Under the pieces are notes generated by a model. That model saw nothing but the letters and a program-made list of their open reading frames with translations, did no database searches and was not told the origin of the DNA. DNA of 63,131 nucleotides, filler included, from an uncultured Myxococcia bacterium (GTDB lineage Bacteria; CAZTWC01): NCBI GenBank assembly GCA_964617105.1. It is 3 parts of 3 records of this genome, joined end to end, with 100 filler letters (N's around TTAATTAATTAA, not from the genome) between each part and the next. Parts side by side here need not be neighbours in the genome. Positions count along the whole stretch, not along the records: positions 1 to 21,669 come from CAZTWC010000030.1; 2 more parts are not named here. One strand, given 5' to 3'. Positions 1,843 to 55,377 of this stretch are shown piece after piece. Position 1 is the first letter of the stretch. Each line of letters starts with the position of its first letter. The position numbers and the translations under genes were made by a program.

Positions 1843-1885
1843 TAAATAATTGGAAAAAATCAAGGCCTTTTGGGGAGGATTTTTA

Positions 1886-3907
1886 ATGACAGGAGAAAAG
1901 TTAAAAGTGGTTTTGACTGGCGGCGGCACTGGCGGCCATGTTTATCCATCTCTGGCTATTTCTAACATTCTGGAACAAAAAAAGATGGTGCAGGATATCC
2001 TTTATCTGGGTGCCAGAGGTAAGGCAGAAGAAAAAATTGTTCCCCGTCATAATATCAATATCTCCTATGTTCGCACCGCACCGGTGGCAGGACTTTCCCC
2101 CATTAATAAACTTCGCTCTTTAGCCATCATTGCCATCGGAGTGATACAAGCGATAAAAAAACTTATTGCCTTCAAACCCCAATTGATAATTGGAACTGGT
2201 GGATATGCGTCAGCACCAATAATTTTTGCGGCATTTATACTAAAGCCATTTTTAAAGTTAAAAATAATCCTGGAAGAACAAAATCTCATGCCCGGCTTAC
2301 TAAACAAAGCCGCTTCACTTTTGGCTGATGTGGTACTGCTCAATTACCGGGAGAGTAACTATTTTGTTTGGAGCAGCAGATGTATTCAAGTGGGATACCC
2401 GGTTCGCAAAGCCTATGGTCAGTCCTCTGAGTCCAAAAACCAACTGAAAGTTAAATTGGGGATACCAGAACATAAGAAATTAGTGCTGGTTCAGGGCGGT
2501 TCTCTGGGTTCAAGAAGCATAAACCGCGCTTTGGCTGGAATCATCAAGCACCTGTCTGCCAATGATAACATCTATATTGTTCACAGCATTGGACTGGCTG
2601 AAAACGATAGTTATCATGCCCTCCAGGATACTCGAAATAAAATGACTGGTAGTCTTGGAAATTCTTTTAATCCGGAAAAATTTGAAGCCTATAATCAGCA
2701 GGGAGAAATTTTTTATCGCGGTTTCCAATATATCCACAACATCTTCCAATGGCAAAAAGCGGCAGATTTGATTATAAGCCGGGCTGGAGCTGGCTCTTTG
2801 GCTGAGATAAACGCTTTGGGCAAAGCTGCATTAGTGGTTCCCAAAAAAGGGTTGCCCGGTGACCATCAAGAACTTAATGCCATAAGCATTGCCGAAAAAA
2901 ATGCCTGCCAGGTGATTTTTGAAAAAACTGACCCGGATACCAAAATAGATATCCTGGATAAAAAAGAGTTCTTCTCCTCCATAACCGACTTGATTAGTAA
3001 CCCTCAGCGTTTAAACGAATTGGCCAAAAACTCGGCTGATAATTTTCACCACAGTTATGTGGATGATATCTTCAATGCCGTGCAAAAAACCATCAAAGGA
3101 GAAGAACATGATTACCTGCTTCAAATCGATCCTCCCCAATTTGTCAAACTACAGTTTCAATTTGACAACCTGATAGCCTACCTGGATAACCTGTATAACC
3201 GCAATTCACCGGCAGAGGTTGAACAGAACCTCTATTACAGATTTTATAACCACAAAATCCCTGAATACCTGGAGAGCACTAAATATTTGATCCAGAATAA
3301 AGGTATCAAACTGGTAGGCACCTTGAAAAGGTATGATTATTATCCCTATCTCCTGGAAAACTTTTGTGATTATCAAGGATACCTGCGGCGTAATATCCTG
3401 ATTGGTTTCAAAAAAGCGGATAAATTCTATCCACTGTTTAAAGAGGCGGTAATTAAAGGATTATCTGACCCCTATTATGAAACACGCCGGGAAGCCATCT
3501 CCCTTTTTATCCGTTTTCATACTCACTTGAAAAATGAAGACCAAATCAATAACTCCATTCTCCAAATGCTGCCCAAAAAACTTGAGAGTTTTGAAGTTAT
3601 ATCCCAGGCCATTAAAGCCGCTGTTTTGATTTTACCGGAGATAGAATTTGTTAAAATTGCCTCACCCTTTTGTCAGGATAGAAATTTAAAGTTACGTCAG
3701 GCGTTACTAGACGCCGTTAAGTTGGGAATCAACCACAACAGGTTCTCAAATAGTCATAATATTTTTATCTTGTTAAACCGAATGTTGATCAGCACCTCTG
3801 AATTTTTACCAAAATTTAAAATAAAGGAAAATTTCAACCAGGTGATTAACAGCCTTAACCAAACCGGAGAAACAAACCAGGTTTCAGGATCAGCACTAAG
3901 GAAATAA
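1886..3907 (+). CDS. murG: MurG-family glycosyltransferase with ~270-aa C-terminal helical (HEAT-like) extension
   Basis: TGGGTGGHVYP, GTGGYAS, EQN, GGSLGS, SRAGAGS and HQELNA motifs; start placed at ATG 1886 after GGAGG. Confidence 0.88.
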   Translation: MTGEKLKVVLTGGGTGGHVYPSLAISNILEQKKMVQDILYLGARGKAEEKIVPRHNINISYVRTAPVAGLSPINKLRSLAIIAIGVIQAIKKLIAFKPQLIIGTGGYASAPIIFAAFILKPFLKLKIILEEQNLMPGLLNKAASLLADVVLLNYRESNYFVWSSRCIQVGYPVRKAYGQSSESKNQLKVKLGIPEHKKLVLVQGGSLGSRSINRALAGIIKHLSANDNIYIVHSIGLAENDSYHALQDTRNKMTGSLGNSFNPEKFEAYNQQGEIFYRGFQYIHNIFQWQKAADLIISRAGAGSLAEINALGKAALVVPKKGLPGDHQELNAISIAEKNACQVIFEKTDPDTKIDILDKKEFFSSITDLISNPQRLNELAKNSADNFHHSYVDDIFNAVQKTIKGEEHDYLLQIDPPQFVKLQFQFDNLIAYLDNLYNRNSPAEVEQNLYYRFYNHKIPEYLESTKYLIQNKGIKLVGTLKRYDYYPYLLENFCDYQGYLRRNILIGFKKADKFYPLFKEAVIKGLSDPYYETRREAISLFIRFHTHLKNEDQINNSILQMLPKKLESFEVISQAIKAAVLILPEIEFVKIASPFCQDRNLKLRQALLDAVKLGINHNRFSNSHNIFILLNRMLISTSEFLPKFKIKENFNQVINSLNQTGETNQVSGSALRK

Positions 3908-3920
3908 CTAATAATCCATA

Positions 3921-3956
3921 CACCGTAAAAAACACAGTAAAAAACACAGTAAAAAA
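3921..3956. repeat. 12-bp tandem repeat CAC(C/A)GTAAAAAA x3 in the murG-mraY spacer
   Basis: caccgtaaaaaa cacagtaaaaaa cacagtaaaaaa. Confidence 0.85.
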
Positions 3957-3972
3957 TTCGAGGTATCTATTT

Positions 3973-5085
3973 ATGATAAAATGGTTAATCGAAGCCCTCC
4001 AAGCAGGCGGCATTGATCCCGGATTTTTCCGGCTCATAGATTACATAACTTTTCGCGCCATGATGGTAGCGCTGACAGCCCTGGCCTTTAACCTTATTTG
4101 GGGACATAAAATAATCTGTTATTTGCATAACCATGGGATGAAAGATTCCTCCGGAGACTTCCAGGCGCTCAATGTTCACTCAAAACGAGGCACGCCCACT
4201 GCCGGAGGTATAATGATAATGGCAGCCACCATTTTTTCCTTGCTCTTATGGGCCGATCTCAGCAATCTAATTCTTTTGATACTGCTCAGTTCCATCATCT
4301 ATTTTGGTCTGGTTGGTTTTTTTGATGATTTTCTCAAAAGCCGGTATAAATCCTCACTTACCGGACTTAGTCAAATCGGTAAAACTTCACTGATTTTACT
4401 TTATATTGTTCCCTTTGCCCTCTTTTTTGTATCTTCTTATAATCCGTTGCCGGAAGAGATTAAAACCTCTATCTATTTACCCTTTCTTAGCGACTCGGTG
4501 CTCGACCTGGGGCCAATATTGTTTGTTCTGTTTATTATTTTTACCATGTTTGCCATTATCAATGCAGTTAACATCTCCGACGGGATGGATGGACTATTAG
4601 GCGGACTATCATTTATCTCAGTATCAGTTTACGCTTTATTTGCCTATATCATTGGCAGCGAAATCCTGGCTAAACATTTTCTTTTTCCCCATATACCCGG
4701 GAGCATAGAAATAACGGTATTCGGGGCGGCTTTGGTGGGAAGTATTTTGGGATTTTTGTGGTATAATTTTTATCCAGCCGAAGTTTTTATGGGTGACACT
4801 GGTTCACTAGCACTGGGTAGTTCCCTGGGGTTAATGAGTTTTTTCTTAAAGCAGGAATTTCTTTTCTTAATAGTCGGTGGTATTTTTGTGCTGGAGATAT
4901 TTACCTCTCTTTTGAACGACAAATTAGCCAACCGATCTAGTTTCGGACGGCGTATCGTACATCGAGCACCCTTTCATTATACAATCACTCATCGGGGAGT
5001 GGCTGAGCCCAAAGCAGTATTCAGGTTACTGGCCGCAGCCATCATTCTGGCCCTGATATCACTTCTCTCAATTAAAATCCGGTAA
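3973..5085 (+). CDS. mraY: Phospho-N-acetylmuramoyl-pentapeptide transferase (MraY), HHH motif altered
   Basis: YITFRA, KRGTPTAGG, GFFDD, NAVNISDGMDGL and PAEVFMGDTGSLALG motifs; multiple TM helices. Confidence 0.9.
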   Translation: MIKWLIEALQAGGIDPGFFRLIDYITFRAMMVALTALAFNLIWGHKIICYLHNHGMKDSSGDFQALNVHSKRGTPTAGGIMIMAATIFSLLLWADLSNLILLILLSSIIYFGLVGFFDDFLKSRYKSSLTGLSQIGKTSLILLYIVPFALFFVSSYNPLPEEIKTSIYLPFLSDSVLDLGPILFVLFIIFTMFAIINAVNISDGMDGLLGGLSFISVSVYALFAYIIGSEILAKHFLFPHIPGSIEITVFGAALVGSILGFLWYNFYPAEVFMGDTGSLALGSSLGLMSFFLKQEFLFLIVGGIFVLEIFTSLLNDKLANRSSFGRRIVHRAPFHYTITHRGVAEPKAVFRLLAAAIILALISLLSIKIR

Positions 5086-5093
5086 AAAAAGGC

Positions 5094-5122
5094 AAAAAAA
5101 AACCTCCCAATAAATTGGAAGG
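5094..5122 (-). terminator. Intrinsic terminator closing the minus-strand non-coding transcript
   Basis: Minus strand CCTTCCAA-TTTA-TTGGGAGG followed by T9; includes a U-G pair valid only on the minus strand. Confidence 0.8.
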
Positions 5123-6218
5123 CCCTTTGAATTCGAAAAATAGATGATCAAATTACAAAATTTGGAGCTTTAACGTTTTCCCAACCAAATGGCTTCGTCT
5201 GGTATTAACTATACAATCGCACAATTAAACCTGACAGAGTCTCTCTTACGGTTTCTTGAACTTTTAGAGTTTTCAAAATTGCATCTAGTCAGTTACCTGA
5301 CATCTGCCCTAACGTTTCTACGTCTCCGCAGTTTTCGATTCAATTTCTATTTCGTCTTATCTTTAATAAAAAAGTTAAAACGAAAACCTCTTGTAGCCTT
5401 TCGCGCCGTTTCAGAGATTTTTACCTCCGATTGTTTTCCTAGCTTCTGATTATTTATCTCCGATTCCTCTTTGGCAATCTCTTGCCGCCATGAAATCGAA
5501 AGCCTTGTCAACAAAAACCTAACGGTTATTATTAACATCCCTGTCGGGCGAAATTCTTTAAGATAATCCCCTAAAGGTTTACCTTAAACTTCCCAGGCCT
5601 GTCGCCAGATTACGCTAACCCTTCTTGTGGGTCCATGATGGTTTCCCCTTCAGACAACGTTTCAGGCAGTAGCTCTCGATACTGCTTTCGAAACCTCTAT
5701 TTGCTTTTCCAGCAACCTTAGGCTGTTCTCTCTGAAGTCCTTTGGCATACAACCTTGTCTCTCGACTCAGTCTTAAGCCTAGTGCCATCTTCGACCTTTG
5801 CCCCTGGAGTTTTCCCTCTAGCAAACATTTTGAATCAGTTTCCCGACTCTGCCGCTCATGCCGTTTTGCACGGTTGCAACGGTTTACCTTCTACTAGATC
5901 CTTTGCTTACAGACCTGACAACCAACCAAGGTTAATCGTCAAACTGCATAGGCCAGTTCCTCCTTCGACTGTTGAGGGCTTTCATGGTTTTAATCCAAAA
6001 GTCAATCTTACTCTGCTTCCAGAGTGTACCTTCCTGCTCTTCACCTTGCTGTGATTTAACACCGCGCTAGTGGGACCTTCAAGGTTTTGTTCCTGACTCC
6101 CAGACAGATTCGGTTTTGCAACCTCCTCTTGACCATCCTAACCTTCTGGAGCATACTGTCTATCACTGTTAGGCGATACACAATTTAGCCCACTTTGATT
6201 TCGACCATCTGCGAAAGC
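5094..6218 (-). ncRNA. Candidate large (~1.1 kb) highly structured non-coding RNA of unknown family
   Basis: No credible ORF. Minus-strand hairpins with GNRA/GNRAA loops at 5288-5301, 5318-5331, 5473-5486, 5666-5685, 5701-5715, 5757-5766, 5861-5873 and 6112-6123. Long stems with U-G pairs at 5350-5385 and 5506-5537. Promoter upstream and terminator downstream. Confidence 0.72.
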
Positions 6219-6224
6219 AATTAA

Positions 6225-6253
6225 ACACTCTCATAATCATTATTTTCTGTCAA
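6225..6253 (-). promoter_or_regulatory. sigma70-type promoter for the candidate ncRNA
   Basis: TTGACA (6248-6253)-N17-GAGTGT (6225-6230) with extended -10 TG. The -10 keeps the A-11 and T-7 positions but is otherwise non-consensus. AT-rich UP-like tract upstream. Confidence 0.6.
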
Positions 6254-6488
6254 GCCCTTTTTCAATAAAATTTATTTTTATTATAACTATCGTATATTAT
6301 TGGAAATATACTGCACTTTTTCGCTTAAAATATGATGACTCAATATTTTTTTTACAACAATTGTATTCTTATAAGATTAAAAACGGAACTACTTTATTAA
6401 TATTTATCTCCTGGTTGCACCAACACCCTGGTTGTGTTAATGATATTTATTGTTCTGTTTCATTAATAATATCTTCATAATTTGTCTT

Positions 6489-7277
6489 ATGAGAAATTTT
6501 TTAGATAAAGTTGTCCTGATAACTGGCGCCTCTTCCGGAATCGGTTCTGCTTTGGCCAAAGATTTTGCCCGGCAAGGTGCCAAACTGGTTTTAACCGCCC
6601 GCCGGCTCGATCGACTTAAAGCCCTGGCTCTTGAACTAGGTGAAGAGAGAACCCTGTCTATTCCATGCGATGTTACTTCTGATACTGATCTACAGACCGT
6701 TGTTGCCGAAGTAAAGAAAAAGTGGGGCAAAATCGATGTGGTAATTGCCAATGCCGGCTTTGGCATTCAAGGTAATCTTGAAAAACTCGCTCTGGAAGAT
6801 TATCGTCGCCAGATGGAAACCAATGTTTTTGGCCTATTACGTACTGTTTATGCTACTCTGGATGAATTAAAAAAGAACCGGGGACGCTTGGCCATCATGG
6901 GCAGTGTGGCCGGTTATATCAGCACACCAGGGGCATCCGCCTATGCCATGAGTAAATTTTGCCTCTGCGCCCTCAGCCAGTCATTGTGGGTAGAACTGGC
7001 TGATTACGGAATCGCGGTAACCCTAATAAATCCCGGTTATGTTGCTTCAGAGATCAGGCATAAGAATAACCGGGAAAAATTATATCTCTCGAGTAAAGAC
7101 CCGGTGCCGCCCTGGCTGGTGATGCCAACTGATAAAGCCTCAAAACAGATGATTAAAGCCATATATAAAAGGAAAAAAGAGATTACAATCACCAATCACG
7201 GAAAAATTTTGGTTTGGCTGCAACGCCATTTCCCCGGGCTGATGCGATATTTTATCAGCAAATTCAACCGGGAGTAA
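6489..7277 (+). CDS. SDR family NAD(P)-dependent oxidoreductase
   Basis: TGASSGIG, NAG and YAMSK (YxxxK) motifs; ATG at 6489. Confidence 0.92.
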   Translation: MRNFLDKVVLITGASSGIGSALAKDFARQGAKLVLTARRLDRLKALALELGEERTLSIPCDVTSDTDLQTVVAEVKKKWGKIDVVIANAGFGIQGNLEKLALEDYRRQMETNVFGLLRTVYATLDELKKNRGRLAIMGSVAGYISTPGASAYAMSKFCLCALSQSLWVELADYGIAVTLINPGYVASEIRHKNNREKLYLSSKDPVPPWLVMPTDKASKQMIKAIYKRKKEITITNHGKILVWLQRHFPGLMRYFISKFNRE

Positions 7278-7292
7278 GAGGTACACAAATAT

Positions 7293-8582
7293 ATGGCCCT
7301 AATAAAATCTACTTCTAAAACTCCGAAAAAATCTTTCCGGCTCAATCAACTGGTTACTTTTTTTATCACCTGGCTCAGTTATGCCGCCTATTATCTAACC
7401 CGAAAAAACTTCAGCGTAGTCAAAAGTACCCTAAAAGAGCAATTGGGCGTTTCGGTAATACATCTCGGTTATATAGATACCATCTACCTGGCGCTCTATT
7501 CGGTGGGACAATTTATCAACGGTGGGCTGGGCGACAAGTTTGGGCCAAAAAAAATCATCTTTGTGGGTATGGTATGCTCGGCTTTATGCTCCTGCCTCTT
7601 TGGTCTTTCCAACGGCTTTCTGCTCTTTGCTCTGTTCTTTGGTCTAAACGGATATTTCCAGTCCACCGGCTGGCCCAATAATGTAAAGGCAATGACTCCC
7701 TGGTTTACAGACCGGCAACGGGGCAAAGTAATGGGACTTTGGTGCACCAACTACCAGGTTGGCGGCCTGGCGGCCACTGCTCTGGCCTCTTTTTTACTAC
7801 AACAGTACGGATGGCGTTCAACTTTTCTAACACCAGCCACTCTGGTTGCTGTCGTAGCGCTAATGGTGCTGATTTTTCTAAAAGAAAAACCCTCTGACCT
7901 GGACGCTGAAAATATTGACACCAGAGAAAACAGTCTACCAGATTCAGCCCAAACGATTGAAGAGAGTTCAAACCAGAGTATTTTTTCCATGCTTAAAATA
8001 CCTGCTCTCTTGAGTTTTGGTCTCTCCTATTTCGGTCTTAAACTGATCCGTTACAGCCTGCTATTCTGGCTGCCCTTCTATCTGAACACAGTGCTGGGAT
8101 ATCCACGTCATACTGCCGGTTATATGTCAATCTCCTTTGAAATTGGTGGTATTTTCGGGGCAATATTCACCGGTTGGCTGTCGGATAACTACTTTAGCCA
8201 CAATCGGGTCCGGCTGTTGGTGCCGATGTTGTTGGGATTGGCCTTAGCCCTTTTCATCTACCCTCAAGTGGGGAACTTGAGCCCCATGGCCAATATCCTC
8301 TCCATGGCCCTGGTAGGTATGTTGCTGGTGGGGCCGGACTCCCTGATCTCCGGTGCCTGCGCCCAGGATATTGGCGGTAATCTCAAAGCCGCATCAGTAG
8401 CAGGTATTATCAATGGTATTGGCTCTGTTGGCGCTATCTGCCAGGGAATGGTTACCGCTTTTATCAGCCGGAAATGGGGCTGGAATTTCCTGTTTTACTT
8501 CTTTGTGCTGGTGGCAACCTTCTCATCTCTTGTTCTTTTACCCTTGGCTCTAAAATCAAAGTTAAAAAAAGAAACTTCCTAA
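7293..8582 (+). CDS. MFS transporter, OPA (GlpT/UhpC sugar-phosphate) family
   Basis: YYLTRKNFS, GLNGYFQSTGWP, WF..RQRG motifs; about 12 TM segments. Confidence 0.88.
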   Translation: MALIKSTSKTPKKSFRLNQLVTFFITWLSYAAYYLTRKNFSVVKSTLKEQLGVSVIHLGYIDTIYLALYSVGQFINGGLGDKFGPKKIIFVGMVCSALCSCLFGLSNGFLLFALFFGLNGYFQSTGWPNNVKAMTPWFTDRQRGKVMGLWCTNYQVGGLAATALASFLLQQYGWRSTFLTPATLVAVVALMVLIFLKEKPSDLDAENIDTRENSLPDSAQTIEESSNQSIFSMLKIPALLSFGLSYFGLKLIRYSLLFWLPFYLNTVLGYPRHTAGYMSISFEIGGIFGAIFTGWLSDNYFSHNRVRLLVPMLLGLALALFIYPQVGNLSPMANILSMALVGMLLVGPDSLISGACAQDIGGNLKAASVAGIINGIGSVGAICQGMVTAFISRKWGWNFLFYFFVLVATFSSLVLLPLALKSKLKKETS

Positions 8583-25350: not shown

Positions 25351-27975
25351 TTACTTCTGACCAGCGTCACGTTGCATGAGTTTGATGGTCTGCATCAACA
25401 CTTCGGTGGTGATAGGTGTACCTTTGAGCATACTCTGGACATCATTGGCTTTGGAATCACTTATTTGTTTAGTAAAAATCTGGTAGGTAGAGATGCCAGC
25501 ATATAGGATGATGGGATACAGGCCACACCCCTGGCAAGCGAGAGGATCTTCTCTGAACATAGAACTCTGGTGAAATACTTTTTTAAAATCGGTCTGGAGA
25601 AGATCAACACTCAACTGTTGTTCCCACAACTCTACAGCATTTTCAGGAGACTCTTTGATCAAATCCGGTTCAGTGGCGAACTGGGACAGGATTACATATT
25701 CACCGATATTATGCATTAAACCTATAGCCTGCGCCAGGTAGGGGAGAGCATCTTCTTCCGGGTCACGCTGCTTAATGCTTCTGGCCAAATAGAAACAGGA
25801 TTGGGCAATAAGAGAGGTCCTCTTGTTGTAATTTTTCATCATTTTACCCAATTCGGCATCAACTTTATAGAGCCGTTCGGTCTCATCAAAAACGGAAAAA
25901 TACATCTTCAGGTGTTCAATCCCAAATTTTCTCAAAATCTCCTCGAAGTTGAGCCCCTTTTCCAGCGACTCGAAGATCAAGGCTGCGGAAAACTTACATA
26001 TATAATAAAAAACAATGGGCACCTTGTTTATCACTGCAGCCAATTGAGGCGTGCTCTGATCGCCTTTCTCCATTATGTCCAGCACTTTGGAAAGTAATTT
26101 ATCCAAAATTTTAGGCTGCGACCATTCATAGAGCAGGTAGTCCTTGTCTTTGTTATCGTGCTCCATCATATCCATCAAAGAGGAGATATCAATATCTTGG
26201 GGTTTGGTGGTGGCCACACTTTTTCCATCTTTGGCGTCATCAACAATGGTTTGCATTCTGGCTTTGGGAAGTTGGGACATACAACTTTTCAGATATTGGT
26301 CCATAACTCCCAGCCGCCTGGCGAATTGCTTATCTTCACCAAACATAGGACCGTAACGGGAACTGAGCCTCAGAATGAAACCTTCCAACACTGGGGTGAG
26401 AACATTGTTGATGTCGATATTCAACTCCGCCAGCAGAGATACTGTATCAGAGGGGATATAGTTATATCCATGATCCAAACAGATACCGGCTCCGCTGATC
26501 AACAAATCGGCCAGGATTACTAACTTAAGGTAATTGGATTCAATCTCTGTTGATTTAGGCTGGTCATGATACTGCACCACTTCGATTACTTTTTCCTGAA
26601 AATCGATAGACTCCAGGTAATCAACTCCAAAATCAATATGAAAGGGATAGACAATAGCCTTAATGGCTTCGAGGTTATCTACTGCATCTTCAATTTCTTT
26701 CTTGTGGTCCAGGGCCTGTAAGATTATCACTTCACCGATATTGATGGTCAATCCACAGAGAAAGAGGAGATCGTAATTAATCCGCTGGGAATATTTCTCA
26801 GCCAAAGCCAGGGACAACTCTGCCACCGCCAGGCTTTTAAAAGAGGCGTCCTTGAGCATACTCTCTATTTGCGGATGCTGGGCGGTGTACAGACCACTCA
26901 ATACCATCAGGGAGATCATCTTTTTCAGATTCTGGATGCCCAGTTTTAATATCGCCTTATCAATAGAGGTAATCTTTTCTCCCCTGGAGTAATAGGTACT
27001 GTTGCTGACTTTGATCAGCAGGGTGGAAAAAGCCTGATCCTGCCTCACCGCCAAACTTAGTTTGTCAATGCGAATATCCGGGTCGTCCAACTGGCTCAAA
27101 AGCGGCAGGATCGATTCACTGCGGCAGTGGGGAGTAAAACTGGTACGTATTAAGTATTCCCTGAAAGGGAGAACAATTTCGGTTAAATCGCCAGGAAACA
27201 CATGCCGGGGGTCATCCAGGATCTGGGTCTCCTGATCCATGGCAGCCTTCTCATTCTCATCCTTGTCGAGATCCATCTCAAATACATAATCGCACTGGGT
27301 ACAGATTATCTCCTCTTTGGGGATCTTGGCCAGGCACTTAGGACACCTTTTTTTAACCACCCGTTTGGGAGCCTGAGCTCTTTTTCGCTCGTATTCCCGG
27401 AACAAATTATTGATGATAGAGGAGATCTCTACCGGGGTGAATGGCGCCACAATCACATCGTCCACGCCCAACTCTTTTTTCCCTTTTTCCGAAACTCCCT
27501 TGGTAGAAGCAAGTACGCCCAGCACCGGAAAAATATCTTTGGAAATGGAGGTTACATTTTTTAAGATAATCCCCCTGCCCTTTTCAATGATAAATTTGCG
27601 CCAGTGGAAGTTAAACAGTTTTTCGATGTCGATTTTTGAGTATTTGAAGGTTTCTTCCCTGTTAACTATCTCATCAGCGTGCTTGATCTCTATCCCTTTT
27701 TGCAACAAGTATTTTTTAAAGGAGCGCAGCATATCCTTATTGTCAATCATGGGGGAGATAATCTCACTGGCCGTGCGTCTTAAGTGCTCCTCCTCCACAA
27801 TCATCAGAGCCGGGGGGTCATCAGCGACAATACTCTGTACTCGGTCCAAATTTTGAATAATGGGAGTGTCGTATTTGTCTCTTAGTGCTTGCCGGATGGT
27901 TTCCGCCATAACCTGGTTGTAAAACCAAATTAATATAGTAATTTTGGGACAATCATCGAGGGATTTTTTCATCAT
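25351..27975 (-). CDS. Multi-domain signalling protein: degenerate receiver-like region, zinc ribbon, two HDOD domains
   Basis: CPKC..CTQC; DQAFSTLLIKVSNSTYY...ITSIDKAILKLG, GL..NIGE; second degenerate HDOD (GLMHNIGE). Confidence 0.7.
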   Translation of the reverse strand: MMKKSLDDCPKITILIWFYNQVMAETIRQALRDKYDTPIIQNLDRVQSIVADDPPALMIVEEEHLRRTASEIISPMIDNKDMLRSFKKYLLQKGIEIKHADEIVNREETFKYSKIDIEKLFNFHWRKFIIEKGRGIILKNVTSISKDIFPVLGVLASTKGVSEKGKKELGVDDVIVAPFTPVEISSIINNLFREYERKRAQAPKRVVKKRCPKCLAKIPKEEIICTQCDYVFEMDLDKDENEKAAMDQETQILDDPRHVFPGDLTEIVLPFREYLIRTSFTPHCRSESILPLLSQLDDPDIRIDKLSLAVRQDQAFSTLLIKVSNSTYYSRGEKITSIDKAILKLGIQNLKKMISLMVLSGLYTAQHPQIESMLKDASFKSLAVAELSLALAEKYSQRINYDLLFLCGLTINIGEVIILQALDHKKEIEDAVDNLEAIKAIVYPFHIDFGVDYLESIDFQEKVIEVVQYHDQPKSTEIESNYLKLVILADLLISGAGICLDHGYNYIPSDTVSLLAELNIDINNVLTPVLEGFILRLSSRYGPMFGEDKQFARRLGVMDQYLKSCMSQLPKARMQTIVDDAKDGKSVATTKPQDIDISSLMDMMEHDNKDKDYLLYEWSQPKILDKLLSKVLDIMEKGDQSTPQLAAVINKVPIVFYYICKFSAALIFESLEKGLNFEEILRKFGIEHLKMYFSVFDETERLYKVDAELGKMMKNYNKRTSLIAQSCFYLARSIKQRDPEEDALPYLAQAIGLMHNIGEYVILSQFATEPDLIKESPENAVELWEQQLSVDLLQTDFKKVFHQSSMFREDPLACQGCGLYPIILYAGISTYQIFTKQISDSKANDVQSMLKGTPITTEVLMQTIKLMQRDAGQK

Positions 27976-34255: not shown

Positions 34256-35167
34256 ATGCGAAAAGTTGCTGATTCTAACGATTTTGATCTTTTTCTCGAT
34301 GAAGACCTGGAACGCAAACAGAAAATTGACAAACTTTTAGGTAAAGTTGAAAAACTCGATATGCTACCCCAGGTGGCCCAAAAGATCATGGCGCTAACTA
34401 ATGATCCCAGGTCGAAAATAACCGATTTGGAAAAAGCCATAAATTCAGACCAGGCCTTGATGGCCAAAATACTGATGATTTCTAACTCTGCAATTTATGG
34501 GTTGGAACGAGAAGTTAAAACCTTACGCAGAGCCATAGTGGTGTTGGGGTTCAAAGAACTGAAAGATATTGCTATCTCTGCAGCACTTCTGGATATGTAT
34601 GGACGGATTGGAGAAATTGCCCTGGCCAATTGGGATCATGCGGTAGGAGTTGCTATCTCTGCCCGGGTAATCTCTTTGCAGACTGAAGAGATCGAGACTG
34701 ATGAAACCTTTATCGCAGGTCTTATGCACGATTTGGGCAAAGTGATATTTTATAAATTATGCCCCGATGACTACCAGAAAGTTTTCAGGGCCTACAATGA
34801 TCGCGAAGGCGATTCTATTACCGTGGAAGAAAATATATTTGGTTTTAACCATACCGAACTGGGCGCAGCTGTAGCCAGATTTTGGAATTTTTCCGATGTG
34901 ATTCAAAAGGTAGTTCGCTTTCACCACTCCCCAGTCGCCACCTATAGTAACAATTTTACCCTGATGGAGAAATGGACAGTGGCTATTGTCAATCTGGCTG
35001 ACCGTTTTTGCCACAAATTAGGGATAGGCCTGAAGTATCCAGAGCCAAACATCAATCTTTTTAACTCCGAAGCCAACAAAATATTAAAACTAGAAGAGGA
35101 TCGAATTCAGTGGGTCACTGAAACTATCAAAATGAGATTTTTTGAAGATAAGTCGCTGTTCATGTAA
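34256..35167 (+). CDS. HDOD domain protein
   Basis: LPQVA, DQALMAKIL..SNSA.Y, AIVVLG, W.HA, AGLMHDLGK, HTELG and HHSP motifs. Confidence 0.92.
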   Translation: MRKVADSNDFDLFLDEDLERKQKIDKLLGKVEKLDMLPQVAQKIMALTNDPRSKITDLEKAINSDQALMAKILMISNSAIYGLEREVKTLRRAIVVLGFKELKDIAISAALLDMYGRIGEIALANWDHAVGVAISARVISLQTEEIETDETFIAGLMHDLGKVIFYKLCPDDYQKVFRAYNDREGDSITVEENIFGFNHTELGAAVARFWNFSDVIQKVVRFHHSPVATYSNNFTLMEKWTVAIVNLADRFCHKLGIGLKYPEPNINLFNSEANKILKLEEDRIQWVTETIKMRFFEDKSLFM

Positions 35168-36042: not shown

Positions 36043-38025
36043 ATGCCTATTGATCAGCCCACAATTCTTACTATCGACGATGAACCCATTGTTATTATGG
36101 CCTTGAAACTCTGCCTGGAGGACGAAGGATATCAAATTTTCTCAGCCCCAAATGGGAAAGAGGGGTTAGAGATTTTTAAGCAAATCAATCCACAAATTAT
36201 TATATTAGACTTGAAAATGCCTGTTATGAACAGCATGAAATTCCTGGAAAATATTGATCATAATCCTCAGGATTCGTACGCCATTATTGTCCTTACCGGT
36301 CATGGAGACAATGAAGATGATGTGGAAAAATGCTTTTCCAGAGGGGTTAGCGCTTTTGTCCGTAAACCATTTAGTGAAATTGAGTTAAAAGGCTCTATTA
36401 GAAACTCGCTGGCTCTGCTTCAATACCAAAGAGAATTGTCAGACGCCGAAAACAAAACCGCAATCGCCAGCCAGGCCAAAAGTGAATTTCTGGCTAATAT
36501 GAGTCACGAAATTCGTACCCCGTTGAATGTTATTTTAGGAATGGCGGACTTGTTATTGGATTCTGAATTGAACCGGGCACAGCAAATTTATGTCCGCTCT
36601 TTTCAGAAAGCCGGAATAAATTTGCTGAACATTATCAGGGGCATTTTCGATCTCACCAAAATTGAGAAAAATCAACTGGCCATTGCCAGAGAGGTATTTG
36701 ATCTTTGTGACTTGATTAAAAGAGTGTCTGATATCACAGCGATTAGCGCTCATGGCAAAGGTCTGGAGATGATCTGCCGTATCGAATCAGGACTTCCTCA
36801 CTTTCTGGAAGGCGACCCTTTCCGAATACGGCAAGTTCTGCTTTACCTGCTGGACAATGCAGTGAAATTCACAACCCATGGAGAAATAATCCTGGATGTA
36901 AAAAAATGTAGTAAAAATAGCGGGTCCAAAAATATATCGCTCATGTTTTCGGTGCGAGACACGGGAGTGGGTATTGCTCCTGACAAACTACAAAATATTT
37001 TTCAAGTGTTTTCGCAAGGAGATATCTCTTCCAGCAAACAGCACCAGGGGGCAGGCCTGGGCTTGACCTTAGCCCAAAAATTAACCCTTCTGATGAACGG
37101 ACAAATAGAAGTAACGTGCCCTCAATCGGGAGGTACTATCTTCAATTTCACCCTGCCCTTAGATCGGTTAGAAACAAAAAAGCCAACCAAAATTGCTGAT
37201 TTAAACCTGAATGGGATAAACATCCTCTTAGCAGAAGAGAACCAAACCAACAGTAATTACCTGGCAGAAATAATACTAGGCTGGGGCGCCAAAGTGGCTA
37301 CAAGCCATAGTTGCGAAGCCAGTTATTCATTACTGGAAAAATCCAGTTTCGATTTAATCTTAATAGATAGCAAATTGACCGGTTCGGGTTGCCAAAATTT
37401 TCTGCAGTTCTTAAATGAGCATACCGGGGATAAAAAGCCCCGGACCATTATCATGCTACCTTCCAACTTTTCCAAACAGCAAATCCAAAATATCAGCAAT
37501 TGTAATGATACCGACTATCTGCTCAAGCCTATAAAATTGGATGAACTACAGGACAAAATATTTCAAAGCCTTTCTATGCCAATGCAAGCCTCTGTAAATA
37601 TGGTGGATAGAGTGGATAAAACATCAAAAAATGGCAGTCCACCAAAGCCGAAAATCCTATTAGCAGAAGATTCTGAAGATAATGTTCTTCTGGCCCTGGC
37701 TTTTTTAAAAAAGGTTGTCAGCTCGATAGAGGTGGCAAAAAATGGTCAAGAAGCAGTGGAAAAATTTAAAGATGGTAATTTTGACCTGGTTTTGATGGAT
37801 ATGCAGATGCCAATAATGGATGGATATGAAGCCACCAAAAAAATCAGAGAAATTGAAGCCGAAAGAGGGGGCAAAAAAACGCCGATTATAGCTTTGACCG
37901 CCTATGCCCTGGACGAAGAAGAGCGCAAGAGCCTGGCAGCAGGATGTGAAGTTCACATGCCCAAACCGTTCAAGAAAAAAATGTTAATTGAAACAATTCA
38001 ATCTATTCTCTCAACGAATAACTGA
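36043..38025 (+). CDS. Hybrid histidine kinase (REC-HisKA-HATPase-REC-REC)
   Basis: FLANMSHEIRTPLN, DTGVGI and GAGLGL motifs; receiver domains. Confidence 0.92.
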   Translation: MPIDQPTILTIDDEPIVIMALKLCLEDEGYQIFSAPNGKEGLEIFKQINPQIIILDLKMPVMNSMKFLENIDHNPQDSYAIIVLTGHGDNEDDVEKCFSRGVSAFVRKPFSEIELKGSIRNSLALLQYQRELSDAENKTAIASQAKSEFLANMSHEIRTPLNVILGMADLLLDSELNRAQQIYVRSFQKAGINLLNIIRGIFDLTKIEKNQLAIAREVFDLCDLIKRVSDITAISAHGKGLEMICRIESGLPHFLEGDPFRIRQVLLYLLDNAVKFTTHGEIILDVKKCSKNSGSKNISLMFSVRDTGVGIAPDKLQNIFQVFSQGDISSSKQHQGAGLGLTLAQKLTLLMNGQIEVTCPQSGGTIFNFTLPLDRLETKKPTKIADLNLNGINILLAEENQTNSNYLAEIILGWGAKVATSHSCEASYSLLEKSSFDLILIDSKLTGSGCQNFLQFLNEHTGDKKPRTIIMLPSNFSKQQIQNISNCNDTDYLLKPIKLDELQDKIFQSLSMPMQASVNMVDRVDKTSKNGSPPKPKILLAEDSEDNVLLALAFLKKVVSSIEVAKNGQEAVEKFKDGNFDLVLMDMQMPIMDGYEATKKIREIEAERGGKKTPIIALTAYALDEEERKSLAAGCEVHMPKPFKKKMLIETIQSILSTNN

Positions 38026-38152
38026 ATCTTCAATGAAGTAAAGATAGTTGTAAGATATAAAATGGCATAGTATTATATAAATTTTGGCTAAAATAGTTCT
38101 AGTCAATCAGGGTGAACACTACATATTTTATAGAAATTAATAAGGATAATAT

Positions 38153-39118
38153 ATGGCAAATGACAACATTCAAGCCCAGATTGTAGTTGCCGATGACAAT
38201 CCCCAGAACCTGGAACTTTTATCCAACCTGCTGTCCATGGAAAATTTTCAAGTAATCGAGGCAGAAGACGGCGAAGAGGCTCTAAGAAAAATAGACCCCA
38301 ATCAAACCGACTTGATTATTTTGGACATTATGATGCCGAAGATGGACGGATACGAGGCCTGTAGACGGTTAAAGGAACGCCCCGAAACCAGGTTTATCCC
38401 GGTTATTTTACTTACCGCCCTTGATGATCTTTCCAACCGGATTAAGGGATTTGAAGTCAATGCTGAGGACTACCTGGTCAAACCCTTTAATCGCTTTGAA
38501 CTTATCGCCCGGGTAAAATCACTAATTAAGATGAGGCGGCTGGTTAAAATGCTGGATGACGCCGAGAGTGTTATTTTCTCCCTGGCCAAGGCGGTTGAGG
38601 CCAAGGACAGTTATACTGAGGGGCACATTGAAAGAGTAAGTAACTTTGCGGTCTCCCTGGGCAGAGAGTTAAATCTGAGCAAAGCGGAAACTTTTGCCCT
38701 TCGCCGTGGTGGCATACTCCATGATGTAGGCAAAATCGGTATTCGCGATTCGATTCTAAACAAACCGGGCCGGCTTACCGATCAAGAACGCGACGAAATG
38801 ACGAAACACCCGGTAATCGGCGAACAAATCTGTAGCCCATTGCGCTCCATGGATCGCGCCTTGTTGGCAATTATCAGGGGCCATCACGAAAAATTGGATG
38901 GCACCGGTTATCCCGATAAGTTAAGGGCTGAAGAGATTTCTGTGGTTACCAGAATTATGTCCATTGTGGATGTTTATGACGCCCTCACCTCCGATCGCCC
39001 ATACCGGAAAGGGATGACCAGCGAACGCGCCTTTGAAATACTCTATATTGAGTCTAAAAAAGGATGGTGGGATACGGAGATACTAGATAAATTCAGTCAA
39101 TTGATCAATGGGAGTTGA
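38153..39118 (+). CDS. Response regulator with HD-GYP c-di-GMP phosphodiesterase domain (RpfG-like)
   Basis: REC domain plus LHDVGK, HHEKLDGTGYP and DVYDAL..DRPY motifs. Confidence 0.93.
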   Translation: MANDNIQAQIVVADDNPQNLELLSNLLSMENFQVIEAEDGEEALRKIDPNQTDLIILDIMMPKMDGYEACRRLKERPETRFIPVILLTALDDLSNRIKGFEVNAEDYLVKPFNRFELIARVKSLIKMRRLVKMLDDAESVIFSLAKAVEAKDSYTEGHIERVSNFAVSLGRELNLSKAETFALRRGGILHDVGKIGIRDSILNKPGRLTDQERDEMTKHPVIGEQICSPLRSMDRALLAIIRGHHEKLDGTGYPDKLRAEEISVVTRIMSIVDVYDALTSDRPYRKGMTSERAFEILYIESKKGWWDTEILDKFSQLINGS

Positions 39119-53100: not shown

Positions 53101-54029
53101 AGAAGGAGGAGAAAGAGCGGCTGTTATCTCTTCAAAATGGAGCCCTGGGCTTTGCCAGCGGACCATGGCAGGAAGCCAAAATCGATGATTTACTGGATCA
53201 AATAGTAAAATCTATCTCCCAGAAGTCCAACCAGGTGCTGCTGGTAGAAGATAATCGCAATCTGCGAAGAGCCATTGTAGAGGTAATCAGCATGGAGGGG
53301 ATAGTGATCAAGGAGGTGGATAGTGGAGAAAAAGCCTTAGAAAATATTCGGCAGGAGCCCTTTGACTGTATTATTCTTGATTTGGGACTTCCCGATATTA
53401 GCGGCTTGGAACTTCTGCGTCGTCTGGAAAAAGAGGAAAATCTTTTTGTTCCGCCTATCGTGGTTTATACAGGCAGAGACCTGAGCAGGAAAGATGAGAT
53501 GGAGTTGCGTCATTTTTCCGATTCCATTATTATCAAGGGCGTCAAATCTCAGAAACGGCTGTTGGATGAAGTGAGCAAGTTTCTGCACCTTAAAGTGGAC
53601 AGGATGCCTGATAACCAGCAACGAATTATCACTCAATTGCATAACGAATACAGAGAACTGGTGGACACAAAAGTACTGTTGGTGGATGATGATATGCGTA
53701 ACCTGATTATTCTTTCCAACTTGTTGCAGGATAGTGGAATAAAAGTATTTGAAGTAGCCGATGGACAGCAGGGATTGGACACTTTAGACAGGGAAGAAAT
53801 AGACCTGATGATTGTTGACATTATGATGCCGATTATGGACGGTTATCAGGTAATCACCAAAGTAAGAGAACAGAAACGGTTTAAGAATTTGCCCATTATC
53901 GCCCTCACCGCCAAAGCTATGGATGAGGACAGGGAAAAATGTCTTCAGGCTGGCGCCAATGAATATCTGGCAAAGCCAGTGGACATGGAGAAACTATTCG
54001 CTATTATGCGGAGATTGACAAATGGATGA
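50133..54029 (+). CDS. Membrane hybrid histidine kinase (TM-poly-HAMP-GAF-HisKA-HATPase-3xREC)
   Basis: Two TM helices, HAMP repeats, GEG/GDGLVGQAA GAF, FLANMSHELRTPLN and GGTGLGL motifs; three receivers. Confidence 0.92.
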   Translation: MKLSLKAKMILAISSLVVLISLFQVIYFPQHGKNIALQGFYRSVKDLTELIAFGVGMGLEFEQKQACRDAFAGASKNKQLRYILVIDDQEEIFVSFQKEKADLEPPYKMVKKPVLWERKNLLNISVPVWSNEKIIGTIIAGFSLTEIKDQAQRDLWRAILMSLLVLVLGLVFANYLGRRISSPILEVTNAAHAIASDDLQHHKLSINSQDEIGSMALSFNKMQDNLINLYQQAQIIALGDLSSPKLFSESSGDLGSTFARMVASLKNLALQADAIERGDFNAQILAEKTEGDLGKSFARMIASLQKLALQADAIERGDFNAQILTEKIEGNLGESFSKMVISLKKMARQANIIQRGDFQNPLLKEIVIGELGQVLHNLATSLNEATEDNLRHNWLITGQIQLNEQMRGDLNLDIFAERVITFLSQYLEAQIGAFYLLVNDYLRLAGNYAGNKKVSLNQRITLGDGLVGQAALEQKMITASDLPEDYLQITSGIGEASPRYLVVFPVTYENQITGVIELGFFQPIEYAKIELLNLVMENITVCARSTQARIKTVDLLEETQRQTEELQTSNDQLAEKSRQLTLRKQEADAKNLELERARKDLENTAIKLEQANKYKSEFLANMSHELRTPLNSMLLITYNMAKNMEGNLTKRQLEWVNIIQSSGNDLLNLINEILDLARIEAGKMVINFHSVSISQLMKSLTNTFKLTAQQKNVQFITNIHPDIPTDIITDRKRLEQILINLLANAFKFTQQGQVKIDLSPLPKEVKFFRKDLSWKNIMSISISDTGIGIPTDKRDLIFKAFQQVEEGTSKRYGGTGLGLSISKELSELLGGEIHLESQEGEGSIFTIYLPFKPTKMPDKPEDDLQKIKMITKIEDQQAEIPKAEHTFNGNHQLKNHDINGDQKRILVIEKNIELARWLGEKCQERGYKYLEASTGEEGIMLTSRYELAGVIIDLHLPGMNGQAVLGNLKEDVKTRHIPVYLISEQELDKEKEEKERLLSLQNGALGFASGPWQEAKIDDLLDQIVKSISQKSNQVLLVEDNRNLRRAIVEVISMEGIVIKEVDSGEKALENIRQEPFDCIILDLGLPDISGLELLRRLEKEENLFVPPIVVYTGRDLSRKDEMELRHFSDSIIIKGVKSQKRLLDEVSKFLHLKVDRMPDNQQRIITQLHNEYRELVDTKVLLVDDDMRNLIILSNLLQDSGIKVFEVADGQQGLDTLDREEIDLMIVDIMMPIMDGYQVITKVREQKRFKNLPIIALTAKAMDEDREKCLQAGANEYLAKPVDMEKLFAIMRRLTNG

Positions 54030-55377
54030 AAAAAACAAAAATCTTGTGTCAAAAATCTTACTGGTGGATGACAAAAAGAGCAACTTAACTGCTCTGGATA
54101 GTTTGTTGAGTAGAGAGTTAGAGTATGCCAAATTATTTTTCGCCCAGAGTGGCAATGAAGCGCTTAAACTTACTCTACAAAATCGTTTCTCCTTGATATT
54201 GCTGGATGTTCAGATGCCGGTGATGGATGGATACGAAGTGGCGGAATACTTACGCTACAAAACTAAAACTAAACATATCCCAATAGTCTTTCTCACCGCT
54301 GCTTATGCTGATGAGTTTCACATTTTCAAGGGATATGAATTGGGGGCTCTAGACTATATTGTCAAGCCTTTTAACCCGATAATTTTACTTAACAAGGTGC
54401 GTATTTTTATCCAACTGGACAGACAAAGAATGCGGTTAGAGCAAGAGATAATTGTGCGTCATAATGCTGAACAATCTTTATGCCAGGCTAATGAGCAATT
54501 AGAGGAGCGGGTAAAAGAAAGAACCGTGGAATTGGAGGATACCAACTTAAAACTTCAAACTGAAATAAAGGAACGTGAACTTACCCAATCTCAATTGAAA
54601 GACGCTTATGACAATTTAAGTCAGACACATAATACTTTGAAGGATACTCAAGCCCAACTGATCCAGGCTGGAAAAATGGCTGCCCTGGGAGAACTTGGCG
54701 CTGGCATCGCCCACGAACTAAACCAACCTCTGACTGCTATCGTGGGATTTTCCAAACTGATGTTAAATACCGATGACCAAAAATCCAAAACCACCAAACT
54801 TTTAAACATAATCTACCAGCAGGGGCTTCGTATGGCTGACATTATCGACAAGATTGTGGCCTTTTCCCGCCCCCAAAAAATGGCTATCACTTCTATGGAT
54901 ATCCGCACGGTTATCAACGATTGCCTGGCCTTGTTGGAGGCTCAGTTAAAAAACAGGAATATTGAACATCCCCTTGATTTTCCCAAAAATTTCCCCCTGG
55001 TAATGGGAGTTCCCAATCATTTGCAGCAAATATTTCTAAACTTGATAAACAATGCCAGAGACGCTGTCTGCAGCCACTGGCACCAAAAAATTGGTGGCAA
55101 AATCGTCGTCAAGGGAAGAATCAAAGATGATGATGTGGCCGAAATTATAATTAGCGATAATGGTCTGGATATCCCCGATGATAATGTTGACAAACTCTTT
55201 GACCCATTTTTTACCACCAAAGGGCCTGACAAGGGTACTGGATTGGGGCTGTCTATCTCTTACCGAATTCTACAAGAGATGAATGGCGACCTGTTTTTCC
55301 GCCGTGGTGTGGATAATGAAAAGCAGTTCGTGGTGCAGTTACCAATCCAAACCCAGCAGGGCGCGCTACCACTCTAA
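54022..55377 (+). CDS. Response regulator receiver-histidine kinase (NtrB-like)
   Basis: LLDVQMP, AGIAHELNQP, NARDA and PFFTTK..GTGLGL motifs. Confidence 0.92.
   Translation: MDEKNKNLVSKILLVDDKKSNLTALDSLLSRELEYAKLFFAQSGNEALKLTLQNRFSLILLDVQMPVMDGYEVAEYLRYKTKTKHIPIVFLTAAYADEFHIFKGYELGALDYIVKPFNPIILLNKVRIFIQLDRQRMRLEQEIIVRHNAEQSLCQANEQLEERVKERTVELEDTNLKLQTEIKERELTQSQLKDAYDNLSQTHNTLKDTQAQLIQAGKMAALGELGAGIAHELNQPLTAIVGFSKLMLNTDDQKSKTTKLLNIIYQQGLRMADIIDKIVAFSRPQKMAITSMDIRTVINDCLALLEAQLKNRNIEHPLDFPKNFPLVMGVPNHLQQIFLNLINNARDAVCSHWHQKIGGKIVVKGRIKDDDVAEIIISDNGLDIPDDNVDKLFDPFFTTKGPDKGTGLGLSISYRILQEMNGDLFFRRGVDNEKQFVVQLPIQTQQGALPL

Follow-up and report, generated by a model that had tools for sequence, protein, structure and literature searches.

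The 63,131-nucleotide (nt) stretch of DNA analyzed here, which we call the window, comes from an uncultured Myxococcia bacterium (assembly GCA_964617105.1). It contains a gap at positions 5094–6253, for which a first-pass annotation, made from the sequence alone, had proposed an undescribed giant structured noncoding RNA with its own promoter and terminator, read from the minus strand. The gap lies between cell-wall and SDR genes. On one side it is bordered by a Glycos_transf_4 (MraY-type) gene at 3973–5085 on the plus strand, upstream of which is a GT28 (MurG-type) gene; on the other side is an SDR gene, with an open reading frame (ORF) at 6450–7277 on the plus strand and an ATG near 6487, followed by genes for an MFS transporter and a TPR protein. 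The annotation had seen no credible ORF in the gap, and we agree: the longest one encodes 99 amino acids (aa), and none of the six gap ORFs that we tested had a Pfam match below an E value of 0.1. On the minus strand, no gene lies downstream before the convergent MraY-type gene is reached, and no direct or inverted repeats were found flanking 5094–6253. The GC content of the gap on the plus strand is higher than in the AT-rich flank at 6150–6450, and a steady negative plus-strand GC skew across the gap means that the minus strand is purine-rich. The evidence described below leads us to conclude, with a probability of roughly 0.88, that positions 5094–6218 of the minus strand constitute a real, new, and stand-alone gene for a structured noncoding RNA that lies outside Rfam 15.

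Judged by contig depth, this RNA is transcribed far above its neighbors. Eight public runs from two studies contain the stretch, three of them seawater RNA-Seq metatranscriptomes from one study. We compared the RNA runs (X3, X5, and X6) with a DNA run (X1) over positions 3500–7800, divided into 30 bins. In X3, a single RNA-Seq contig of 1028 nt, which does not itself give the strand, is 100% identical to positions 5184–6211 and has a depth of 46.6. A contig in X6 spans 5330–6197 at a depth of 18, and X5 yields identical pieces between 5180 and 6096, at depths of 13–57; taken together, the X5 pieces extend over 5180–6129. The RNA runs have depth in just 8 (X3), 8 (X5), and 7 (X6) of the 30 bins, all inside 5084–6235, and the depth of both flanks (3500–5083 and 6236–7800) is 0 in all three. 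The DNA run covers all 30 bins, with a mean depth of 1.2 to 9.1 per bin. Because the flanking genes are silent in the RNA runs, the signal represents RNA and not carried-over DNA.

The same RNA runs also contain partly matching contigs, of 80%–95% identity and depth 12–231, which are diverged relatives of the RNA. The most diverged of these, with a depth of 118 (X3) or 231 (X5), has only 5395–5427 and 6006–6041 in common with the window at an identity of at least 80%, and 565 letters separate the two blocks, versus 578 in the window. Other relatives share 5732–5820 (depth 144.5) or 5829–5911 plus 6002–6033 (depth 29.9), and further ones share 5587–5755 and 5796–6129. The libraries thus contain transcripts of several diverged versions, all roughly equal in length. 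Measured as contig depth in the same libraries, the diverged relatives reach 118, 144, and 231, compared with 13–57 for the window RNA.

To see whether the hairpins exceed chance, we compared the two strands with 500 dinucleotide-shuffled sequences. Counting hairpins with a GNRA cap and a stem of at least 4 base pairs, we found 7 on the minus strand, compared with 1.57 ± 1.22 in the shuffles, none of which reached 7; the plus strand has none at all. The excess of minus-strand GNRA hairpins described in the annotation is therefore real, and no other 1160-nt tile of the 63-kb window surpasses the count of 5094–6253. Fold strength behaves in the same way. In 200-nt tiles starting at 5100–5800, fold z scores range from −1.9 to −4.2 on the minus strand and are mostly near 0 on the plus strand. 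Over the whole RNA (5184–6218), they are −7.93 (minus) and −2.12 (plus), with a minus-strand minimum free energy (MFE) of −322.1 versus −269.2 ± 6.7 when shuffled. Our assignment of the RNA to the minus strand draws on features of the sequence, namely this fold asymmetry, the G-U pairs, and the putative promoter and terminator.

A search for relatives with BLAST and nhmmer identified two full-length homologues, both in species-representative genomes of other uncultured bacteria. In a 401-genome sample of the phylum to which G003 and G004 belong, BLAST matched two, G722 (E = 1e-23) and G728 (E = 8e-22), with 72% identity in the core; nhmmer aligned query positions 33–1126 (locus L045) and 35–1114 of 1160, with E values of 1.2e-69 and 1.3e-67. 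The homologues, present as one copy per genome, are 56%–57% identical to the window and 93% identical to each other. No reading frame is kept among the three sequences. In five gap-free blocks aligned between the window and G722, the mismatches do not follow a 3-base phase; the gap runs measure 2, 8, 5, 14, 22, 9, 17, 4, 1, 9, and 25, and only 1 or 2 of the 11–12 runs per homologue are divisible by 3. The longest stop-free frames across window and homologues, 41–110 aa, differ between the genomes.

What the homologues do preserve is base pairing. To avoid circularity, pairs were first predicted from the window sequence alone. When the 370 pairs of the window MFE structure were followed in G722, 110 were unchanged, 53 had changed on one side and still paired, and 46 had changed on both sides and still paired; 85 were broken and 76 fell in gaps. 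Double changes account for 25% of the changed pairs, versus 10.5% in a null of random complementary column pairs, and 71% of the window pairs are canonical in G722, versus 38%–44% when the partner is slid by 1–3 columns. Read as the opposite strand, the alignment retains 37% of changed pairs, no better than the null of 34%, and pair-keeping one-sided changes fall from 53 to 29, which is the G-U signature of a minus-sense RNA. An RNAalifold consensus of the three sequences contains 330 pairs in 57 helices, and 92.4% of its cells pair, compared with 84.7% in shuffles and 37%–47% when slid. Within it, 79 of the 330 pairs are doubly changed; the shuffles give 31.3 ± 4.3 (0/500 reach the observed value) and the slid alignments 5–19. 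The best-supported helices are 5897–5888/5827–5818, 5737–5728/5657–5648, 5715–5711/5705–5701, 6025–6020/6015–6010, 6101–6093/6005–5997, 5593–5586/5557–5550, 5301–5297/5292–5288, and 5789–5785/5641–5637. Two 16-nt stretches, 5697–5682 and 5549–5534, are invariant.

The comparison also refines the individual elements that had been read from the window. The GNRA-rich loops are indeed present there, although only four GNRA loops are conserved in the homologues: GUAA at 5296–5293, GAGA at 5763–5760, GAGA at 5677–5674, and GAAA at 5842–5839. The stem of the last is wholly different in the window, in G722, and in one relative from the RNA runs, in which, compared by eye, GAGUCGG-GAAA-CUGAUUC (5849–5832) has become GAAUUUG-GAAA-CAAAUUC, with two pairs doubly changed. 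Similarly, UUGCU-GGAAA-AGCAA (5715–5701) is replaced in another relative by CUAUCU-UCG-AGAUAG, with four pairs doubly changed by the same visual comparison and conserved flanks. Nine stems had been named in the annotation. Five of these (5301–5288, 5694–5659, 5715–5701, 5766–5757, and 5873–5861) are kept, by covariation or invariance; at three (5498–5461, 6123–6112, and 5537–5506) a hairpin is in place in another register or length; and one, 5331–5318, gives way to a conserved CGU-AGAA-ACG hairpin with an outer CUGC/GCAG stem. Overall, the proposal of an undescribed giant structured RNA on the minus strand is supported by the RNA contigs, the homologues, and the compensatory changes.

The extent of the transcript can be predicted from its flanking signals. 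The claimed minus-strand promoter, TTGACA-N17-(TG)GAGTGT, is present in the sequence: the −35 box TTGACA reads directly at 6248–6253, and after 17 nt comes a putative extended −10 element at 6225–6233, made up of TG (6233–6232), one base, and GAGTGT (6230–6225). As a −10 hexamer GAGTGT is weak, retaining the A at position 2 and the T at position 6, and for this reason the pair is missing from the output of the promoter scan, which instead listed the equally weak TTGAAA-18-AATGAT. Both homologues, read by eye, have TTGCAT, 16 nt, and TATAAC ending 8 nt ahead of the first conserved block, a combination that the scan does not list. The window GAGTGT is also 8 nt before the first conserved block, and TTGCAT is in register with the window TTGACA. 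A T6-C-A9/10 run occurs about 45 nt upstream of the putative −35 in both homologues (about 2890–2910 in the G722 contig, L046, and about 3310–3330 in the G728 contig, L047). At the other end, the terminator scan confirmed the U9 intrinsic terminator on the minus strand (5094–5128), with a 14-pair hairpin (5128–5097) followed by U9; it is the sole terminator-like site within 4800–6700. We infer a primary transcript of 1125 nt (5094–6218, minus strand), which would start about 7 nt past the extended −10 near 6230 and end at the U9 of the terminator.

Reading this predicted transcript from 5′ to 3′, all on the minus strand, the homologue alignment and consensus delimit a 5′ domain of about 245 nt (5975–6220) with several covarying helices. 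Helix 6101–6093/6005–5997 has three doubly changed pairs, and hairpin 6025–6010 combines a conserved GAAG loop with double changes in three of its six pairs. The closing helix of this domain, 6220–6206/5974–5960, is uncertain, as it competes with the P1/P2 stems of the segment that follows. That segment, module A (5799–5970), is a diverged copy of the core, recognized by its match to R1, a covariance model built from module B only, in three genomes. It includes helix 5897–5888/5827–5818, with five doubly changed pairs, and the GAAA hairpin 5849–5832. Module B itself (5630–5796), defined by the alignment and by R1, is the most conserved core, with 53 pairs in 167 nt forming three-way and multi-helix junctions. 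Its mean column identity in alignment A2 is 88%, it scores 185.9 bits with R1, and its covarying helices are 5737–5728/5657–5648, 5715–5711/5705–5701, and 5789–5785/5641–5637.

Downstream of module B, the homologue alignment shows a central cluster of hairpins (5399–5629), which contains the invariant 16-mer GCCCGACAGGGAUGUU (5549–5534) and a conserved block at 5427–5395. Helix 5593–5586/5557–5550 of this cluster has four doubly changed pairs, 5548–5546/5541–5539 is invariant, and 5431–5423/5418–5410 is kept. Module C (5259–5398), a probable third and more degenerate copy, was found with a second model, R2, built from modules A and B; it holds hairpin 5301–5288, with its GUAA loop and three doubly changed pairs, as well as the CGU-AGAA-ACG hairpin. 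Finally, a 3′ segment (5140–5258) that includes GGGAAAACGUU..GCUCC (5182–5164) is conserved in all three sequences.

The internal module repeats are a feature absent from the first-pass annotation. Over its full model length, R1 matches the stretch adjacent to and upstream of module B in L046 (34.7 bits, E = 1e-8) and L047 (33.4 bits), and in the window at 5970–5799 (20 bits, E = 3e-4). Because the module B model also matches the upstream stretch in all three RNAs, the RNA appears to be partly a tandem array of modules. When the six modules were aligned, 96% of cells paired and 34 of the 53 pairs were doubly changed (0/500 shuffles; 3–8 when slid). A third copy is matched by R2 at 5398–5259 in the window (23.6 bits, E = 1e-6) and at 3703–3829 in L046 (28 bits, E = 7e-8); none is listed in L047 at E ≤ 0.01. 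Weak extra matches at 5590–5441 and 5245–5165 in the window, 3025–3186 in L046, and 3448–3608 in L047 are hints only, and they disagree between genomes. The module, about 165 nt long, thus occurs at least twice and probably three times in the RNA; it consists of two closing stems, a long arm, and a 10-pair helix around two hairpins. The junction strands GGUCGAAG, CAAAGGA, and GGGGAAA are conserved per module position across the three genomes; in each genome, the AAGGA-bearing strand of module B reads CAAAGGAC and that of module A reads GCAAAGGAUC.

We then compared the RNA with known families. Rfam 15, searched with cmscan over the whole window at the gathering score, gave no matches. In E-value mode on 4900–6600 (up to E = 10), the best E was about 1 and the rows were terminator-like or chance matches. 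Nothing on the RNA of the homologue contigs matched Rfam 15 up to E = 1, which supports the undescribed status claimed for the RNA. Specifically, the GOLLD (RF01998), ROOL (RF03087), and OLE models have no match in the window or the homologue contigs, and the group I, group II, RNase P, rRNA, 6S, and small-ribozyme models have none to the RNA. ARAGORN found no tRNA or tmRNA in the 63-kb window, in L046, or in L047. The annotation was thus right in seeing no RNase P, tmRNA, 6S, rRNA, or group II intron. Elsewhere in the two homologue genomes, G722 and G728, ordinary genes for RNase P RNA (317 and 312 bits) and 6S RNA (84 bits) score above the cut-off, so the new RNA is not their stand-in. The tmRNA model RF00023 yields just tRNA-sized matches below the cut-off in these two genomes, maybe a gap in fragmented assemblies. 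A strong hairpin at 4966–5047 of L047 (minus strand) resembles microRNA precursor models, with E values of 0.003–0.3, by chance likeness. We found no description of such an RNA in the full-text literature; supplementary lists of candidate motifs lay outside this search.

The closest comparisons are with the large ornate bacterial RNAs, which are described as longer than 500 nt, noncoding, and rich in covarying helices, all of which we find for the window RNA in two independent lineages. As to a further trait of the class, transcription as a discrete and abundant RNA, contigs from the RNA libraries are confined to this stretch, at depths of 18–57 compared with 0 on the flanks. OLE, about 600 nt long, is known from Gram-positive bacteria with extremophilic or anaerobic lifestyles, in which its gene is linked to those of its partners (oapA and others). 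According to one account (PMC12286853), many GOLLD members exceed 800 nt and lie in prophages near tRNA islands; ROOL, 659 nt in the solved example, is encoded by phages or prophages, often near tRNAs, and is as abundant as 16S rRNA in one strain; and ROOL and GOLLD are RNA-only cages, with OLE a dimer. In two further accounts (PMC3413148, PMC12265935), OLE is a highly expressed chromosomal ornate RNA that is thought to be the core of a larger complex.

Like GOLLD, the window RNA is very large, ornate, multi-domain, and marine, with conserved plus variable parts. However, it lacks a match to the GOLLD model, a phage-like setting, and any tRNA in 63 kb, and it is partly built of tandem modules. 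Its length of about 1030–1125 nt exceeds those given for GOLLD and ROOL, as the annotation had expected. With ROOL it has in common a large structure and perhaps the potential for extreme abundance, and no protein partner is known for either; unlike ROOL, it is about 1.1 kb long and has neither phage context nor model match. It resembles OLE in being chromosomal, ornate, and, judged by contig depth, highly expressed, but it occurs in uncultured marine bacteria near one Gram-negative-type phylum, has no match to the OLE model, and has no conserved neighbor gene in its family, as judged by Pfam scans of neighbors with no Oap-specific search. Tandem riboswitch aptamers and CsrB-type RNAs also repeat one unit within a transcript, a likeness that suggests multivalent binding. 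Nevertheless, the unit of about 165 nt and 50 pairs is far larger than a CsrB hairpin, and the RNA is stand-alone rather than a leader. We therefore rate it as a new RNA class, kin in kind to the large ornate RNAs and unlike them in size, chromosomal setting, and tandem-module build.

Both BLAST and the covariance model place the RNA in 2 of the 22 genomes of the class of G722. Elsewhere, searches were negative. In the Bacteroidota-type phylum of G001 (401 genomes), all nine BLAST matches at E ≤ 0.01 were 23–42 nt long, at chance level, and in a WOR-3-type phylum (272 genomes) the one match, of 31 nt, lies inside a 572-aa ORF and is not real. No RNA match was found in ten genomes searched singly or in the classes of G411 (0/2) and G769 (0/18). 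Relatives of MraY in genome contigs (14 loci, at most 40% identity) and in metagenome contigs (12 loci, the best being L015 at 63%) have no RNA homologue alongside. In L015, whose GC content is 29%, versus 43% in the window, mraY is preceded by an ORF of 1183 aa and is not followed by an RNA gene. BLAST against 50,697 phage and 72,556 plasmid records found no match, and three pattern scans of viral contigs returned 0, 0, and 9 chance matches, none of the nine fitting R2.

The neighbors of the RNA gene differ in each genome. G722 has an unknown gene of 398 aa and one for a Rieske oxygenase, whereas G728 has an FHA-domain gene and a gene of the 23S-rRNA-IVP family; no gene is common to the window and the homologue contigs, and no conserved neighbor was found. 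Among the genes scanned with Pfam, none is phage-like or integrase-like. The MraY of the window is 36%–37% identical to those of G722 and G728 and at most 42% identical across 82 sampled genomes. Its Rho is 76% identical to those of G722 and G728; the identity is 75%–80% in the 151 genomes examined from that phylum, 67% for the Rho of G001, and 61% for that of G002. By these two proteins, G722 and G728 are not nearer to the window host than other members of their phylum are. Three explanations fit this pattern: an old gene that has mostly been lost, a gene that moves between lineages, or mis-binning of the homologue contigs.

Some other features of these sequences were recorded. Just after the RNA in G728 there are short direct repeats, with units like TTTTCGGAC/TTCGG (L047, about 4400–4560). 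L046 (about 3990–4130) and L047 then have some 90 conserved nucleotides in common, including a GC-rich inverted repeat, which may be another small element. In the window, the MurG-type ORF (1850–3907, plus strand) encodes 685 aa, its two GT28 domains spanning only residues 20–404, which leaves some 280 residues at the C terminus unmatched by Pfam. Response regulators and hybrid histidine kinases, together with HDOD and HD-GYP-type domains, are plentiful in the window, at 25351–27975, 34256–35167, 36043–39118, and 54022–55377.

Several considerations weigh against our conclusion that this is a real RNA gene of the proposed extent and fold. The runs were selected for containing this stretch, the three RNA runs come from a single study, and their contigs carry no strand, true ends, or true level. 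The RNA contigs end at 5184 and 5180 and leave about 90 nt before the terminator uncovered, which may reflect processing or thin cover of an AU-rich tail. The −10 hexamer of the window is weak and its promoter absent from the scan listing, and a terminator scan of L046 found none. Of 40 listed substitutions in the relatives, set against the window MFE structure, 15 are unpaired, 11 pair-keeping, and 14 pair-breaking, and many others are unlisted. The consensus leans toward pairing because it was derived from the same three sequences, as does the six-module alignment, which was fitted to its model. With three genomic sequences, two of which (G722 and G728) are 93% alike, all the covariation stems from a single deep split, and the same event may be scored twice. 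The distribution is narrow, with the covariance model finding 2 of 151 genomes in the phylum sample. Both homologue contigs are short (5.1 and 5.2 kb), making mis-binning possible, although their GC content fits their genomes.

What might such an RNA do? Because no gene follows on its strand and its neighbors differ in the three genomes, we infer that it acts in trans. Our working idea, which we favor tentatively and at less than even odds, is that it is an abundant and stable architectural RNA whose repeated modules would each offer the same surface. It might then serve as a scaffold that binds a protein or a small partner multivalently, or self-assemble through loop-helix contacts by analogy with OLE, ROOL, and GOLLD.

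Repeated surfaces would also suit a multivalent regulatory decoy, whose modules sequester an RNA-binding regulator or a component of the polymerase or ribosome. There are parallels: CsrB-type RNAs sequester CsrA, 6S RNA sequesters RNA polymerase, and OLE has been proposed to act on RpsU in this way. A decoy would be consistent with the stand-alone gene and its variable neighbors, with the very high contig depth relative to those neighbors, and with the conservation in tandem modules of a junction strand containing AAGGA, which we presume to resemble a CsrA site. However, these strands sit in junctions and not in hairpin loops, and the approximately 50 conserved pairs and several junctions of each module go far beyond what known decoys need; in addition, G722 and G728 already have 6S RNA and no candidate partner gene is linked. 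We consider a decoy unlikely.

We think it less probable again that this is a large ribozyme, self-processing or acting in trans, whose size and conserved junctions would be there for the sake of an active site. Among bacterial RNAs of comparable size and structural complexity, the majority of those with a known function are ribozymes or ribonucleoprotein cores, and the invariant stretches at 5697–5682 and 5549–5534 would fit such a site. The contig ends at 5180–5184, ahead of the terminator, could mark a processing site, but they carry little weight, since they come from a single study and lie in an AU-rich stretch. The tandem-module build is atypical of known ribozymes, the RNA has no match to the group I, group II, RNase P, or small-ribozyme models, and it is neither inserted in a gene nor flanked by repeats.

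The distribution of the gene could also be read as that of an accessory RNA which belongs to a phage or other mobile element and, like GOLLD and ROOL, spreads by transfer. Its patchy occurrence (2 of 22 genomes of one class), the relationships of the window host according to Rho and MraY, and the different neighbors in all three genomes are what such transfer would produce. On the other hand, the 63 kb contain no tRNA, there are no flanking direct or inverted repeats, the Pfam-scanned genes are neither phage-like nor integrases, and the phage and plasmid records and viral contigs yielded no match beyond chance. We consider an origin of this kind improbable. Lastly, despite short ORFs of up to 99 aa on both strands, we dismiss as highly implausible a nonfunctional origin as a decayed gene, a small-protein mRNA, a long leader, or an antisense transcript, since there is no conserved frame, indels break the frame, codon phase is absent, Pfam is empty, no minus-strand gene lies downstream before the convergent MraY-type gene, and the helices are preserved by compensatory changes.

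Few large, intricately folded bacterial RNAs without a known function have come to light, and every one of them has led to new biochemistry. The window RNA is bigger than ROOL, GOLLD, and OLE and has an ordinary chromosomal setting, not a phage one; support for its fold comes so far from two independent lineages only. In its boldest form, which we regard as possible but doubtful, our proposal is that serial duplication of one fold of about 165 nt has produced an RNA that is among the most abundant transcripts of its marine hosts, works as a multivalent assembly (either a higher-order particle of RNA only, like the ROOL and GOLLD cages, or a scaffold for several copies of one partner), and represents a new giant class; to our knowledge, this would be the longest class of non-ribosomal structured RNA. 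The module is small enough for probing, ligand screens, and structural work. More generally, if the module copies are read correctly, the window RNA shows how a giant RNA can be built, by repeats of one module.

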